The position numbers and the translations under genes are program-made. This document shows, piece after piece, positions 5,067 through 60,669 of a DNA stretch of 64,000 nucleotides. The notes beneath the pieces were generated by a model, which worked only from the letters and a program-made list of their open reading frames with translations, did no database searches and was not told the origin of the DNA. This stretch comes from Candidatus Saccharimonadales bacterium (GTDB taxonomy: Bacteria; Patescibacteriota; Saccharimonadia; Saccharimonadales; UBA4665). The DNA lies in assembly GCA_035510355.1 (NCBI GenBank), contig DATKHF010000001.1, positions 3,661 through 67,660 on the forward strand. The letters are read 5' to 3'. Within the stretch, counting starts at the first letter, position 1; each line of letters opens with the position of its first letter.

Positions 5067-5387
5067 GCGGAGTGGTGAGAAGAGTAAAAGTTAGTATAAG
5101 CGCTAAAGTATCCATACTGTTGGATAGCGGAAAAGAATACATATAGGCTTACGTGGAGCATATTGCGTTGCTTAGCTTTGACCTAAGTTTTAATACCTAC
5201 TAATCTCTCATTCTTACGTTCCCGCTTCTATATATGGTTCATTGGTAATTACCTGCCGATCACTAGTCGGCCTAAACTCGCGGGCATAGCCTTGGTCGTA
5301 TCTGTTTTTTCTCGCTGTTTTAATGCTTAGTATGACCGAAGCCGTTTTCTCACTGACCCTGGAATGTTGTAAAGCAACAACCTAATC

Positions 5388-6093: not shown

Positions 6094-6963
6094 CTATATG
6101 TGCAACAGTAGATTGAGTACCACTAATTTAGTCTGTGCGTTAACCAGCAGAGCATTTTGGGCATCATGGGCAGCAGTAAGGACTTTTTGCCAACGACGAA
6201 CAGTTTTATTATCGTGAGCTGCTGCAGCCCTCGCAATAGACACCTCCGCCATGCGCAGCAACGCCTGGGTGAGCTCAATAGCTTTCGTTCTGTCTTTAGC
6301 GAGACTATCAAGACGAGCTAGGCGGTCAAAGGTTGATAGTTGTAGCAGCTCACGAGCTTGATTAACGGCTTCGACTAAGGGATGGCTCTTTTCGTCATTA
6401 AGTAGCGCGTAAAGCAGCCCCGGTAAATTACCTCCCAGCACATATACCTGTTCAAAATTTTTGGGCTCAGCGTCGGCTAATTTCTCTAGCTGGGCTCGGC
6501 CGGGCGCCCGAATAGTTATTGTCTGTATACGCGATAAGATGGTCGGTAATAATTGCCGCGGGTTAGAAAACGTTAATATTATAACGGTGTCAGTCGGTGG
6601 TTCTTCTAAGCTCTTGAGTAAAGCATTCTGAGCTTCTAGAGTCATGGCGTCAGCATGTTCTATGATGACGAACCGTCGTAGCGTTGTAGTGCCAGTCGTT
6701 TTTAATTTTAAAAAATCGGTAAGTCCTCGAATTTGATCAATCGTAAGATTATTGCCCTCAGGTTCAATAAGCTTAAAATACGGATACTGCTCTAGCTTTG
6801 TAATTGGTTGTTGAGTGATTTCACTCACTAGCCATTTAGCAAGCGTCGTTTTACCGATACCGCCTGGACCAACCAACCCAAGAGCATGCGACGGGTTTTG
6901 GACAACAGATTCTAGCTCAAGACGGCCAACTTTATGCATTATTGGCTGATTCTGGACGCTCAC
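6094..6963 (-). CDS. holB: DNA polymerase III delta-prime subunit
   Basis: 289 aa; Walker-A-like GPGGIGKTTLA, FVIIEHAD, SRIQTITI (SRC-motif equivalent). Confidence 0.75.
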   Translation of the reverse strand: MSVQNQPIMHKVGRLELESVVQNPSHALGLVGPGGIGKTTLAKWLVSEITQQPITKLEQYPYFKLIEPEGNNLTIDQIRGLTDFLKLKTTGTTTLRRFVIIEHADAMTLEAQNALLKSLEEPPTDTVIILTFSNPRQLLPTILSRIQTITIRAPGRAQLEKLADAEPKNFEQVYVLGGNLPGLLYALLNDEKSHPLVEAVNQARELLQLSTFDRLARLDSLAKDRTKAIELTQALLRMAEVSIARAAAAHDNKTVRRWQKVLTAAHDAQNALLVNAQTKLVVLNLLLHI

Positions 6964-7832
6964 GACTGTTGACCTCTCATGAATTCACTAAAGGCTAGTG
7001 GAAGTGGTGCATAAAAGATCTTACGCTCTTTGTTTGGTAACGTTATCTCAAGGCTCATAGCATGTAGGTATAATCGCTTTGCCGACTTACCTTCATAAAA
7101 GGTGTCGCCAACTATTGGATGACCAATGTGTTTGAGGTGAACACGTAACTGATGAGTTCGGCCAGTCTGCGGACGTAGCTCTAGGAGGCTATGCACACCA
7201 TCTGACTCTAGAACCTTATAATGGGTCAGAGCGGGCTTGCCATTAGCACCAGTTCGAAACGTGGCTGGTGCTTTAGGATTACGTTCGATGGGCATATCAA
7301 TAATGGCTTCTGAGGGCTGTAGCTCGCCCTCGACGATTGCTGCATAGATTTTTTTAACCTTACGTTGGCTGAACTGTTTTTGGAGCCAGGCTAAGGTTGC
7401 CTGATTTTTCGCACCGATCATTACACCAGAAGTAGCTCGATCCAGTCGATGGACTATACCAGCACGCTCACCGTCTAGATCAGTTGTCCTACCGCTGAGC
7501 CAGGTCGCAACCGTGGCCTCAGGATTAAACGCGCCCTTGCTATGAGTCAGAAGGCCAAGCGGTTTATTAATAACCACGCAGTCGTCATCTTCATAAAGAA
7601 TTGGCAAGTCAATGTCAGGTATTTCTGTCAGTTCATTAACATCGTAATCAAGTGTTATTACTTCACCAACTTTTAATTTATAACTAGAACGGGCCGGTTT
7701 ACCGTTAACGAGAATTTTTTCTAGATCACACAGTTTCTGAACAGATGCTCGGCTGATTTCTGGAACCATTTGTGCCATACATACGTCTAAACGCGTTTTA
7801 GACCATTCTACCGTTATCTTAAATTGCTTCAT
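6960..7832 (-). CDS. rluD: RluA/RluD-family pseudouridine synthase with S4 domain
   Basis: 290 aa; catalytic HRLDRATSGV motif, KKIYAAIVEG, THQLRVHL. Confidence 0.8.
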   Translation of the reverse strand: MKQFKITVEWSKTRLDVCMAQMVPEISRASVQKLCDLEKILVNGKPARSSYKLKVGEVITLDYDVNELTEIPDIDLPILYEDDDCVVINKPLGLLTHSKGAFNPEATVATWLSGRTTDLDGERAGIVHRLDRATSGVMIGAKNQATLAWLQKQFSQRKVKKIYAAIVEGELQPSEAIIDMPIERNPKAPATFRTGANGKPALTHYKVLESDGVHSLLELRPQTGRTHQLRVHLKHIGHPIVGDTFYEGKSAKRLYLHAMSLEITLPNKERKIFYAPLPLAFSEFMRGQQS

Positions 7833-8869
7833 GCCGTTTTAGGGCGCAAGCCGACCGCTATTTGGACTTTTAGCAGTGTGGCATCAGCAATTTCATTCAT
7901 AGCTGCCTCATCCGACTCTAGTTTAGCCATCAATGCTTGTTCGTCAATGTGTGCTACGGCCGACTGGAATTCCGTTAAGAAGCTCTTTACGGCGTCTGCA
8001 ACGGCGCTTTTTAGCTCGTCATAACCTGTCTTACTTTCCCAGACCTTATTCACTTCGGTCTGAGGTGTCTGACTGAGGAGTGACAATATTTGTAATAAGT
8101 TGGTGATACCTGGCTGCTTCCCAAAATCAAAATGTATACTAGCCAGACTATCAGTGGTCGCGCTCATAATTTTTTTATCAGCTTCATCGGGATTATCGCC
8201 AAGAAAGATTATTCCTCGATCACTAGCATCGCTTTTACTCATTTTTTTGCTGGGATCAACGAGATCCTTAATGCGTAAACCCTGGTCTTTGCCAAAAAAT
8301 TCATGTTGTTGTTTGACTGGTTTTGGCACGGAAAGCAATTCGCCAAACTGATTATTGAGTCGCACAGCGATATCGCGGGTATATTCTAGGTGCTGTGTCT
8401 GATCATCACCAACCGGAACATACATGGCTCCGTATAAGAGAATGTCGGCTGCCATAAGGGCAGGATAGTTAAATAGCCCGACACTGATTCGGTCGTCACT
8501 AAGCTTCGCGGACTTGTCTTTAAACTGAGTCATCCGGCTCATCTCACCAAAACCCGTAAAACAATCAAGAATCCAAGCCAGTTCGCTATGGGCGCGGACA
8601 AAACTCTGTCGGTAAATATGAATATCTACCTGATCAAGCGGCAAACCTGCAGCTACAAATAGCTTGAGAGTATGAAGAGTTTGCTCATGCAGCTTAGAGT
8701 GGTCAGTCGGAGTCGTAAAGCTGTGTAGATCAGGGACAAAGAGGTTAATTTGATAGTCTCCGGCTCGGTGCATTGCCATATCTACAATGGGCAATAGCGC
8801 TCCAAAGAGATTGCCAATATGCAAATCATTATTGGCCCTGAGCCCCGTCAAGATTACTGGTTTAGCCAT
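7829..8869 (-). CDS. trpS: Tryptophan--tRNA ligase
   Basis: 346 aa; class I signatures LHIGNLFGA (HIGH) and KMSKS; GDDQTQHLE motif typical of TrpRS. Confidence 0.9.
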   Translation of the reverse strand: MAKPVILTGLRANNDLHIGNLFGALLPIVDMAMHRAGDYQINLFVPDLHSFTTPTDHSKLHEQTLHTLKLFVAAGLPLDQVDIHIYRQSFVRAHSELAWILDCFTGFGEMSRMTQFKDKSAKLSDDRISVGLFNYPALMAADILLYGAMYVPVGDDQTQHLEYTRDIAVRLNNQFGELLSVPKPVKQQHEFFGKDQGLRIKDLVDPSKKMSKSDASDRGIIFLGDNPDEADKKIMSATTDSLASIHFDFGKQPGITNLLQILSLLSQTPQTEVNKVWESKTGYDELKSAVADAVKSFLTEFQSAVAHIDEQALMAKLESDEAAMNEIADATLLKVQIAVGLRPKTA

Positions 8870-8880
8870 TACTACACATA

Positions 8881-9096
8881 TTATACATCAATATCCGGCA
8901 GTAACTCCGCACCCTCAACCGCAGTCGACCCTAACGGTCGACGATCTGCTACTCTGAGCTGAATATCACCTTCCGGGGGTACTGAGTGCCCCGTTTCAAG
9001 CAATTGTCGGGCTATTTCCTGAACCCCTCTCCATTCGTCGGGCCCTCGTTCAATGTGGAATGCTGCCAAAATAGCTTTTGCTTCCTTATCGTCCAC
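8881..9096 (-). CDS. Orphan 71-aa protein preceding trpS
   Basis: GTG start 5 nt after AAGGAGA; ends 11 nt before trpS ATG; no recognisable domain. Confidence 0.5.
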   Translation of the reverse strand: MDDKEAKAILAAFHIERGPDEWRGVQEIARQLLETGHSVPPEGDIQLRVADRRPLGSTAVEGAELLPDIDV

Positions 9097-9116
9097 GTAA
9101 TCTCCTTTAGTGTTTT

Positions 9117-9140
9117 AAAAACCGCCTGGTTTGGCGGTTT
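9117..9140 (-). terminator. Intrinsic terminator inside the trpS-operon leader
   Basis: Minus strand AAACCGCC-AAACCA-GGCGGTTT-TT (8-bp stem, 6-nt loop, 5 consecutive U). Confidence 0.6.
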
Positions 9141-9166
9141 AATCAATGCGTTCTTGGTTATGACAT

Positions 9167-9241
9167 TCATGAGCACACAGAACAAACCGCCAGGCTGGTG
9201 TCAATAAACCAATACTGATTGTTCTGTTGCGCTACGGTCAT
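9167..9241 (-). CDS. Candidate 24-codon leader peptide (MTVAQQNNQYWFIDTSLAVCSVCS)
   Basis: Own translation; ATG 7 nt after a -10 hexamer; single Trp codon at 9211-9209; overlaps the alternative RNA pairings of the leader. Confidence 0.35.
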   Translation of the reverse strand: MTVAQQNNQYWFIDTSLAVCSVCS

Positions 9242-9303
9242 ACCAAGAAATATACTTACCTTTTTAAGAAATGTCAATTAGATAAATTCACTTTTAACAG
9301 AGC

Positions 9304-59319: not shown

Positions 59320-60669
59320 TTAATCTTTTTCGAGGAACTCGTTTAAAGCCGTGCGCACATCTGGCACACTTTTAAGCATAGGAAGTCTTGGGCCACTCCG
59401 TTGGAGGGGACCAATAGCGGCCGTAAAACCGAGTTTTTTGGCTTCGGCCAATCGCTTTTCAATAAGAGGTACGTGACGAATTTCGCCTGAGAGGCCGACT
59501 TCGCCAAAGACCACCGCATTGGCTTTTAACTGTAAGCCTTTGGCCGCCGAACCAATCGCCATGCATACAGCTAAATCTGCAGCCGGTTCGCTGAGCCGGA
59601 TACCGCCAACGATATTAATGTAAATGTCTTGGTCAGCCAATTTCAATTTTGTACGCCGCTCCAGCATGGCCACTAAAAGATTAATGCGGTTTAAGTCTAT
59701 GCCGCTTGCCGCTCGCTTGGGATAGCCATAGCTGGTCGGGTTAACTAGCGCTTGCACTTCAACTAGTAATGGGCGCGTCCCTTCAAGCGTAGCTAGGACA
59801 ATTGAGCCATCACTGGCTTGACGTTCTGCCAGCAGTGCCGCCGAAGGATTGTCGACGATTCGTAGGCCACCTTCGGTCATTTCAAAGATGCCGGCTTCAT
59901 TAGTTGAACCAAAGCGATTCTTGCTTGCTCGTAATATTTTAAAACCGCCATAGACATCACCTTCCAGCTGCAGTACGACATCAACGACATGCTCAAGTAC
60001 CTTCGGACCTGCAATTGATCCCTCCTTAGTGACGTGACCAACAATAATAACTGCCGTACCAGTTTGTTTGGCAGCCGCCATAATGAGTTGGGTGCTACCA
60101 GAAATTTGCGTAAGTGTGCCAGCTGATGAATTAAGAGTGCTGCATGTCAATGTTTGGATAGAATCAACGATAACCAGTTTATACTCGCCACTGGCAATAC
60201 TCGTTGCAACATCGTCGGCGAGTGTGCTGGTGGCCAGCTGTAATTTACTCTGTGCGACGTGAAGACGCTCTGCTCGTAGCGCTATTTGATGAGCCGATTC
60301 TTCGCCACTAACATACAGAACCGTTTGCTTCACAGCAACGTTATCCGCGAATTGCAACAACAGAGTACTTTTACCAATACCGGGCTGCCCAGCAATTAAT
60401 GTCATGCTACCAGGGACCAGTCCGCCTCCTAGAATAGTGTCAACATCACCCATACCAGTTTTAATTCGTACATTGTCTTTTTTTGCTACTTTGTTAATAG
60501 CGGTGGTTTGTAACTTCGTACCATCGGGTCTACCTTTGGGCACTTCATTAAGAGAGACTTCTTCCACGAGCGTGTTCCACTCACCGCAATTAGAGCAGCG
60601 CCCGGCCCACGCCACGCTGACCGCTCCACAATTGCTACATACATATCGTATGGTTGGTCTTTTTGCCAT
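59320..60669 (-). CDS. radA: DNA repair protein RadA/Sms
   Basis: 449 aa; N-terminal C4 zinc finger CSNCG...CSNCGEW, Walker A GQPGIGKST, KNRFG, Lon-like C-domain. Confidence 0.95.
   Translation of the reverse strand: MAKRPTIRYVCSNCGAVSVAWAGRCSNCGEWNTLVEEVSLNEVPKGRPDGTKLQTTAINKVAKKDNVRIKTGMGDVDTILGGGLVPGSMTLIAGQPGIGKSTLLLQFADNVAVKQTVLYVSGEESAHQIALRAERLHVAQSKLQLATSTLADDVATSIASGEYKLVIVDSIQTLTCSTLNSSAGTLTQISGSTQLIMAAAKQTGTAVIIVGHVTKEGSIAGPKVLEHVVDVVLQLEGDVYGGFKILRASKNRFGSTNEAGIFEMTEGGLRIVDNPSAALLAERQASDGSIVLATLEGTRPLLVEVQALVNPTSYGYPKRAASGIDLNRINLLVAMLERRTKLKLADQDIYINIVGGIRLSEPAADLAVCMAIGSAAKGLQLKANAVVFGEVGLSGEIRHVPLIEKRLAEAKKLGFTAAIGPLQRSGPRLPMLKSVPDVRTALNEFLEKD

Follow-up and report, generated by a model that had tools for sequence, protein, structure and literature searches.

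A putative leaderless leader-peptide attenuator upstream of trpS in Saccharibacteria

What lies between the ribosomal-protein genes and trpS in a genome from the Saccharibacteria? In the stretch of DNA that we analyzed (64,000 nucleotides, or nt, of contig DATKHF010000001.1 from the Candidatus Saccharimonadales assembly GCA_035510355.1; "the window" hereafter), the genes on the minus strand run in the order rpoA, rplQ (L17), rplM (L13), rpsI (S9, 9711-9304), a spacer of 434 nt, and trpS (8869-7829). The encoded TrpS is 59-77% identical to proteins from Saccharibacteria (TM7), which belong to the candidate phyla radiation (CPR). Saccharibacteria are ultra-small episymbionts; their genomes are reduced, most have not been cultured, and their gene regulation is poorly understood. 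We propose that the spacer contains a ribosome-mediated (leader-peptide) transcription attenuator, which would set read-through into a small gene (orf71) and trpS according to the supply of charged tRNA-Trp. From the comparisons and predicted folds described below, we put the probability of this reading at roughly 80%. The control of read-through probably extends to the overlapping rluD-like and holB-like genes.

An initial annotation of the window had described a promoter, a short open reading frame (ORF) with a UGG codon, a hairpin, a Shine-Dalgarno (SD) sequence, orf71, and trpS. When we re-read the minus strand, the coordinates of every one of these features were exact. The parts of the element are:

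9272-9277, minus strand: -35 hexamer TTGACA (sigma-70 match)
9249-9254, minus strand: -10 hexamer TATATT, separated from the -35 hexamer by a 17-nt spacer and ending 7 nt before the ATG
9167-9241, minus strand: leader ORF, MTVAQQNNQYWFIDTSLAVCSVCS*, of 24 codons plus UGA (ATG at 9241-9239, UGA at 9169-9167)
9206-9214, minus strand: aromatic sensing codons UAU-UGG-UUU (Y10-W11-F12), with the proposed stall codon UGG at 9211-9209
9219-9227, minus strand: segment 1, ACAGAACAA, putative 5' strand of the anti-antiterminator and partner of segment 2b, 8-16 nt upstream of the UGG and within the footprint of a stalled ribosome
9177-9192, minus strand: segment 2 (2a plus 2b), the strand common to the 1:2 helix and the antiterminator in the predicted folds
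9184-9192, minus strand: segment 2a, UGGCGGUUU, which reads as an exact copy of the terminator's 3' arm
9177-9185, minus strand: segment 2b, UUGUUCUGU, which pairs with segment 1
9132-9140, minus strand: segment 3, AAACCGCCA, complementary to segment 2a and the 5' side of the terminator
9119-9126, minus strand: segment 4, GGCGGUUU, the 3' arm of the terminator, followed by UU
9117-9140, minus strand: intrinsic terminator, made of AAACCGCC, an AAACCA loop, and GGCGGUUU plus UU (8-base-pair stem with 5 G-C pairs, 6-nt loop, and 5 consecutive U in all)
9132-9192, minus strand: full span of the predicted antiterminator, an extended 2:3 helix (constrained fold with the ribosome held at UGG)

The promoter matches the consensus at 11 of 12 positions and is the best match within the 4.5 kb that we scanned. 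Its distance from the ATG implies that the leader ORF would be leaderless or nearly so.

The steps that we propose are all inferred from sequence. Transcription would start about 7 nt after TATATT, the RNA would begin at or beside the AUG, and a ribosome would load on this leaderless 5' end. If Trp-tRNA is scarce, then the ribosome would stall when its A site holds UGG (codon 11). The footprint of this ribosome, from about -15 to +12 nt, would cover segment 1 (ACAGAACAA) and end about 7 nt before segment 2a. UGGCGGUUU and its 3' extension would be left free to pair with AAACCGCCA as it emerges, and this extended antiterminator would withhold the 5' arm of the terminator, allowing RNA polymerase to read on. 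If Trp-tRNA is plentiful, then the ribosome would pass through segment 2 to the UGA and would occupy segment 2b and the antiterminator extension; the hairpin of AAACCGCC and GGCGGUUU, with its U-run, would form, and transcription would stop after about 125 nt. If the leader is not translated, as would be the case for read-through from rpsI (in which the AUG would be internal, with no SD sequence before it), then segments 1 and 2 would pair and the terminator would form again. Because of this, the element would also terminate the ribosomal-protein operon.

Folding of the window's RNA supports the mutually exclusive 1:2, 2:3, and 3:4 pairings that had been put forward in the initial annotation, and the comparative data below back this layout. 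The 151-nt RNA has a predicted free energy of -52.5 kcal/mol, compared to -32.3 +/- 3.7 kcal/mol for dinucleotide shuffles (z = -5.45), and none of 200 shuffles was as stable. The minimum free energy (MFE) structure contains the 1:2 helix, an outer helix, and the 3:4 hairpin, as predicted. The outer helix, which had been thought to close the whole leader, does appear in the MFE structure, but it is partly built on bases that lie upstream of the likely transcription start; the transcript from the promoter allows only AUGAC:GUCAU.

We also computed constrained MFE folds in which the ribosome was modelled as a block of unpaired bases that covers positions -15 to +12 relative to the A-site codon. 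Without a ribosome, the window element folds into the 1:2 helix and the terminator (-41.1 kcal/mol). With the ribosome at UGG, the extended antiterminator (9192-9132) forms and the terminator is gone, as had been expected for stalling at the Trp codon. With the ribosome at UGA, the terminator forms. The expectation that a ribosome at UGA would mask segment 2 and favor termination holds for the outcome and for segment 2b, which is covered, but just the last 1-2 nt of segment 2a are covered.

To what extent is this arrangement conserved? The first homologous elements were L001 and L007, which blastn and nhmmer found among loci from GTDB representatives. Both have a 24-codon ORF that starts 7 nt after the -10 box and has W at codon 11. 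We then scanned metagenomes for the pattern TGGCGGTTT-N35-55-ACCGCC-N4-8-GGCGGTTT, which gave at least 120 loci. About half of the metagenome matches listed are true homologues and the rest are unrelated terminator pairs. These unrelated matches (among L082-L200; for instance, L096, L102, L106, L119, and L123) are pairs or arrays of hairpins of the form AAACCGCC-loop-GGCGGTTT in GC-rich contigs, and they resemble REP-type or bidirectional-terminator repeats. Because covariation counts on the pattern-derived loci carry little information, and to guard against circularity, we added a motif-independent sample: the contigs of 10 of the roughly 7,800 close homologues of TrpS, looked up regardless of the motif. 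The element is upstream of trpS in 8 of these 10, and 4 of the 8 do not fit the exact pattern. Together, the first homologues, the metagenome matches listed, and the motif-independent sample give at least 67 distinct leader ORFs. Counts below refer to these 67, to the 61 with a W codon (W-type), or, for the folding, promoter, and SD tests, to 63 sequences. In 13 more distant trpS loci from Saccharibacteria (L002-L016, other than L007 and the truncated L015), we found no comparable element when we searched for terminators with an upstream copy of the 3' arm and for short ORFs with W beside an aromatic residue. Among the loci without the element is L008, from a cultivated Nanosynbacter. The family thus sampled is apparently specific to one clade.

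The short ORF is kept in all 67 distinct relatives. It has 21-28 codons, most often 24, and all 61 W-type leaders have their first W at codon 10-13, usually within the motif YWF. After the W codon come UGGCGGUUU, which is complementary to the 5' arm of the terminator; a GC-rich hairpin and U-run (present in all members, usually with 6 U); an SD sequence; and the downstream genes. The spacing is also conserved. In 53 of 61 W-type members, the start of segment 2a is 19-20 nt downstream of the W codon's first base, about 7 nt past the 3' edge of a ribosome with UGG in its A site. The stop codon is 12-38 nt after the first base of segment 2a in every member, and 19-29 nt after it in 64 of 67. The gene upstream of the element varies: it is rpsI in the window, an ilvE-like gene in L007, and other genes elsewhere. 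Whatever this gene is, the element stays with trpS, DAHP synthase, or pheS.

To ask if the leader is translated without relying on ORF calling, we searched each sequence for its best-scoring sigma-70 promoter and retained those matching at least 9 of 12 positions (33/63). In the relatives so retained, 6-10 nt (most often 7 nt) separate the end of the -10 box from the start codon, and in 32 of 33 an ATG or GTG follows the -10 box at a distance of 5-11 nt. Relative to the start defined by the promoter, the conserved UGG was in frame every time (31 of 31; one in three would be expected by chance), and the ORF so defined reads into segment 2 in 32 of 32. None of the 63 sequences has an SD-like motif upstream of the leader ORF; 60 of 63 have one within 45 nt past the terminator. 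Given a start near the -10 box and no SD motif before it, the leader ORF is most likely leaderless.

In contrast to the W codon, segment 2 has no fixed reading frame. Its consensus (TGGCGGTTTGTTCTGTG; UGGCGGUUUGUUCUGUG) is read in all three frames, by 49, 16, and 2 members (..LAVCSVRS*, ..GGLFRVFA*, and ..WRFTLYCK*), which implies that it is conserved as an RNA element. Despite these changes, the W codon is in frame in all W-type members.

If the ribosome reads the sensing codon, then that codon should match the gene downstream, and this is what we found:

W-containing leader, followed by TrpS: 42 loci
W-containing leader, followed by DAHP synthase (with TrpS next where the contig continues): 6 loci
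W-containing leader, contig too short or gene unidentified: 13 loci
W-containing leader, followed by PheS: 0 loci
W-less leader with F-F or F-F-F, followed by an AlaX-like editing protein: 5 loci, and then PheS in 4 of the 5
W-less YYF leader (L112), followed by TrpS: 1 locus

PheS was called by Pfam (tRNA-synt_2d, E = 2e-73). The association between the type of codon and the downstream gene has a Fisher p value of 1.9e-6, although the loci are not phylogenetically independent. The initial annotation had warned that a lone Trp codon gives weak support for the specificity. The codon-gene link answers this concern, although the presence of only one W codon is still a weak point.

The Phe-codon loci (L086, L090, L159, L195, and L198) encode the leader (for instance, MNALHTFFTDTYVAVCSVR), then a small ORF (absent in L159), then the AlaX-like protein, and then PheS. 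The AlaX-like protein has a C-terminal region of tRNA-synt_2c and a tRNA_SAD domain; the contig of L198 ends inside this gene. DAHP synthase (Pfam DAHP_synth_1) is found between the attenuator and trpS in L092, L101, L111, L131, L139, L143, L179, L206, and L208. Saccharibacteria are generally thought to lack amino acid biosynthesis, so DAHP synthase is unexpected there. By eye only, L007 also has prephenate-dehydratase-like and aminotransferase-like ORFs upstream of the element.

Across the family, the same constrained folding shifts in the direction that attenuation would require. Among the 63 sequences, the antiterminator is predicted in 20 and the terminator in 43 if the RNA is free; in 37 and 26 if the ribosome is stalled at the sensing codon; and in 6 and 57 if the ribosome is at the stop codon. 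The antiterminator has no bulge: it forms one uninterrupted helix, and it is 93.8% paired across the 63 sequences, compared to 39-59% for slid controls. It extends past UGGCGGUUU:AAACCGCCA into UUC:GAA and GUG:CAU, which would account for the conserved CAUUGAAG before the terminator. Also, the A after ACCGCC is unpaired in the loop of the terminator but can pair with the U of UGGCGG in 56 of 63 sequences.

The anti-antiterminator is more varied. In most relatives, it would be a small hairpin, ACCGRCAC:GUGGCGGU, immediately 3' of the W-F codons, and this hairpin would explain why the T-D/G-T codons are conserved. In these relatives, it would lie within the footprint of the stalled ribosome and take the place of segment 1. 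Its closing pair varies (CG in 27, AU in 5, GC in 5, and UA in 1) with 11 double changes. The window uses segment 1 (ACAGAACAA) instead, and the segment 1 motif CAGAACAA is found in about 10 relatives. Other solutions within the family are CAAACCG or GAACAAAC. If a ribosome stalls at the W codon, then it would cover each of these alternatives (CAGAACAA, CAAACCG, GAACAAAC, and the ACCGRCAC hairpin) at least in part.

The initial annotation had also called for a test of covariation in the three helices. In L205, from the motif-independent sample, segment 2a contains GGUUA and pairs with UAACC in segment 3, so the antiterminator is compensated, leaving a U-U mismatch in the terminator; segment 2b and its partner strand were replaced together. 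The closing pair of the local hairpin varies as well. Covariation in the core helices is weak, and it is uninformative because the metagenome search pattern fixed those bases; this and several other observations weigh against attenuation. Three of the unbiased variants (L206, L209, and L210) have uncompensated mismatches in segment 2a, and in L206 and L209 the terminator remains the MFE structure even with a stalled ribosome. When the nascent RNA is folded, 56 of 63 members are predicted to form the antiterminator with no ribosome present, which means that the default-off state is clear in the window and not family-wide. The complementarity between segments 1 and 2 is only moderately above that of shuffles (mean z = -1.26; -0.79 for the window). 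The U-run of the window's terminator is short, as 3 of its 5 U are inside the stem and only 2 are beyond it, and a simple terminator scan did not list this hairpin. Finally, there is the sensing codon itself. Classical attenuation leaders have two or more cognate codons, and this leader has a single Trp codon. Furthermore, the YYF leader of L112, which lacks W, still precedes trpS. The Y and F codons on either side are conserved as well, so the leader may respond to aromatic amino acids as a class and not specifically to Trp; this would fit the members with DAHP synthase.

We considered three other explanations. First, the element could be a stand-alone gene for a small protein or a small RNA, or else the terminator of the rpsI operon together with a promoter for trpS, in either case with no regulatory effect on the genes downstream. 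A transcript of about 125 nt is indeed bracketed by a strong promoter and a terminator, and a terminated leader RNA could act in trans. Also, we found no terminator between the stop codon of rpsI and the leader promoter (9278-9303 on the minus strand), so the hairpin probably does end the transcript of the ribosomal-protein operon. However, no second promoter is evident between the terminator and orf71 or trpS, and the SD sequence of orf71 starts just 10 nt past the U-run. The peptide is not conserved except for its aromatic codons, and a plain gene would have no role for an exact copy of the terminator's 3' arm whose spacing from the W codon is fixed. Nor would it explain why the element travels with trpS, DAHP synthase, or pheS regardless of the upstream gene or why the codon type matches the gene downstream. 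We consider this explanation very unlikely.

Second, the element could be a T-box-like or riboswitch-like leader that senses uncharged tRNA, a protein, or a ligand. The ORF would then be incidental and UGG or UUC would be the specifier triplet; a switch from UGG to UUC that tracks trpS and pheS would be expected of a specifier too. The leader ORF's poor codon-usage score (-0.18) fits this idea, and segment 2a contains UGGC, which we take to be faintly similar to the UGGN of T-box antiterminator bulges. On the other hand, the distance from the transcription start to the triplet is just ~30 nt, which is too short for Stem I, and the antiterminator has no bulge. The ORF is promoter-proximal, the triplet is in frame in every relative tested, and the stop codon past segment 2 is kept despite indels that shift the frame of segment 2. 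An untranslated RNA would gain nothing from keeping the ORF and its frame, so this conservation counts against a T-box-like leader. Searches of Rfam agree. With cmscan (Rfam 15), the only matches at the gathering threshold, both in the whole window and in 10 related loci, were tRNAs. The region did not match Trp_leader at E <= 10, and a match to Phe_leader (15.3 bits, where the gathering score is 55; E = 9.6) is at chance level. Nothing else in Rfam, T-box models included, matched the region at E <= 10. The ligand- or protein-binding leader that the initial annotation had listed as an alternative was not borne out, as no family with another mechanism matches confidently and the ORF and in-frame triplet are kept. 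We think that a leader of this kind is even less probable than a plain gene.

Third, the peptide could act like TnaC: it would sense free tryptophan in the exit tunnel and arrest the ribosome at high Trp. E. coli's TnaC has 24 residues and contains W12-F13-N14-I15-D16. The window's peptide also has 24 residues and has the motif W-F-x-D (WFID), so it is superficially similar, and Y-W-F-T-[DG] is the best-conserved part of the peptide. But where the ACCGRCAC hairpin is absent, the residues past W-F vary (IDT, KNP, TQA, TPT, or PVR), and a different reading frame gives a completely different C-terminal half. The stop codon is not at a constant distance from W, and there is no conserved C-terminal proline. 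The element has an intrinsic terminator, not a Rho site. Also, W is replaced by F-F exactly at pheS, which points to sensing of the codon or tRNA, and inducing trpS at high free Trp has no obvious logic. This is the least likely of the three explanations. As for a TRAP-regulated leader like that of the Bacillus trp operon, 9-11 (G/U)AG triplets spaced by 2-3 nt would be needed, and 9241-9132 contains no GAG and one UAG. A repeat or mobile element can be dismissed because neither blastn nor nhmmer found a second copy of the element in the window; the other occurrence of TGGCGGTTT, at 59950, is a chance match inside a large ORF.

If the element is an attenuator, which genes would it control? The features downstream of the terminator are:

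9101-9107, minus strand: SD sequence AAGGAGA of the first downstream gene (sequence reading)
8881-9096, minus strand: orf71, putatively the first regulated gene, encoding an orphan acidic protein of 71 amino acids (GTG start at 9096; ORF list)
7829-8869, minus strand: trpS (tryptophanyl-tRNA synthetase), the proposed cognate regulated gene (Pfam tRNA-synt_1b, E = 4.6e-54)
6094-8869, minus strand: trpS, a pseudouridine synthase (RluD-like), and the delta' subunit of DNA polymerase III (holB-like), each overlapping the next by 4 nt (ATGA / GTGA; Pfam)

The order of trpS, the RluD-like gene, and the delta' gene is kept in relatives. Given this and the overlaps, the attenuator may control all three. 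Transcripts of the rpoA-rplQ-rplM-rpsI operon should run into the attenuator as well, where the AUG would be internal and lack an SD sequence.

The end of orf71 is 11 nt from trpS. By the searches we ran, orf71 is an orphan, though its codon usage is coding-like (score of 0.25, where in-frame genes range over 0.34 +/- 0.11). It has no match in Pfam, no homologue in a search of 5.8 billion proteins, and no tblastn match in the relatives. Neither blastp nor jackhmmer linked it to the ORFs at the same position in other loci. In 39 related loci (for instance, L001, L095, and L163), an ORF of 50-130 amino acids, usually acidic, begins ~20-35 nt past the terminator. These ORFs have no detectable similarity to one another except between close relatives: the slot is conserved and its sequence is hypervariable. 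By eye only, a subset of them may share a loose helix-G-[VI]-E-helix pattern.

The mechanism that we propose would be classical attenuation. What appears unusual is the leaderless start, the single sensing codon, and a chassis that seems to have been re-targeted from Trp to Phe. The trpL leader of E. coli and the pheM leader of pheST likewise have a short ORF with cognate codons, mutually exclusive 1:2, 2:3, and 3:4 pairings, and an intrinsic terminator. Attenuation of an aminoacyl-tRNA synthetase operon has a precedent in E. coli pheST, according to a passage in PMC1262725. Compared to the leaders of Proteobacteria (Trp_leader and Phe_leader), the element has no similarity in sequence or to the covariance models. 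Its ORF is predicted to be leaderless, with no SD sequence, and it contains one W codon instead of a run. Also, segment 2 is inside the coding region, before the stop codon, and the counterpart of segment 1 is mostly just 3' of the sensed codon.

Seliverstov et al. (2005, PMC1262725) used comparative genomics to predict attenuators upstream of the Streptomyces genes trpS and leuS. Going by their description, as the sequences were not compared, the Streptomyces attenuators of trpS involve the same gene and the same proposed mechanism. They are from another phylum (Actinobacteria), and the family described here adds the branch with Phe codons and AlaX-like/pheS genes as well as the members with DAHP synthase. 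In mycobacteria, leaderless polycysteine short ORFs at the 5' end of operons sense the amino acid via ribosome stalling (Canestrari et al., bioRxiv 10.1101/834739). Several loci share this one design, a "ribulon", and it acts on access to the ribosome-binding site (10.1101/834739). The element has a predicted leaderless start in common with these ORFs, but its output is a terminator, its SD sequence (9107-9101) is outside the hairpin, and it has a single W (or F-F). By these last features, it is not of the mycobacterial type. T-boxes of Firmicutes regulate the same genes (trpS and pheS), also switch between a terminator and an antiterminator, and use a triplet that matches the amino acid; unlike them, the element lacks Stem I, a specifier loop, and the T-box sequence, and its triplet is within a conserved ORF at the 5' end of the transcript.

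The element is outside every curated RNA family in Rfam. In a full-text search of open-access papers and preprints, we found no description of an attenuator or a leader peptide in Saccharibacteria or any CPR bacteria. In thousands of metagenome-assembled genomes (MAGs) of Saccharibacteria, this spacer is left blank or only the orphan ORF is annotated.

We lean slightly towards a broader proposal: that soil and rhizosphere Saccharibacteria have a lineage-specific ribulon of leaderless leader-peptide attenuators built on one conserved RNA chassis (UGGCGGUUUGUUCUGUG ... AAACCGCCA ... GGCGGUUU). Its specificity would be re-tuned by swapping a single sensing codon (trpS and DAHP synthase would have UGG, AlaX-like/pheS would have UUC-UUU, and there may be other codons, as in a second copy of the chassis at L095), and its anti-antiterminator would be in the 3' half of the stalled ribosome's footprint. 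If this is true, then no other cis-regulatory RNA family would have been described before in CPR bacteria, as far as our searches of Rfam and the literature show, and the ribulon would be a natural example of the modular re-targeting of an attenuator. Since one chassis carries W or F-F depending on the gene, codon swaps should re-target the switch. The element suggests that Saccharibacteria monitor the charging of tRNA and set the levels of synthetases by a compact mechanism for which no protein regulator is required; in some lineages, this mechanism would control DAHP synthase as well. With a leaderless start and a single sensing codon, it would be among the smallest attenuator designs (~125 nt), which could be useful in synthetic biology.

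The second copy in L095 (5523-5613, minus strand) is in tandem with a W-type element (5093-5191) and is ~330 nt upstream of it. Its leader has 24 codons, none of which is aromatic (MRMQRMNKQTCVSHISVAACSVHL); the 3' arm of its terminator is altered (GGAGGUGGUUU); and it precedes another small ORF.

Some close relatives of TrpS (P0006, P0007, P0012, P0032, and P0038) are fused to a C-terminal tRNA_bind domain (PF01588) or a YbaK-type editing domain (PF04073). At L201 (P0006), the sole locus with a fused TrpS that we examined, the attenuator is absent. Another relative, P0015 (L203, GCA_035526505.1), is 73% identical to the window's TrpS and is from a MAG that NCBI labels as Nevskiaceae (Gammaproteobacteria). 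Its context is rpoA-rplM-rpsI-attenuator-trpS, as in Saccharibacteria, and the Nevskiaceae label is probably a taxonomic mis-assignment.

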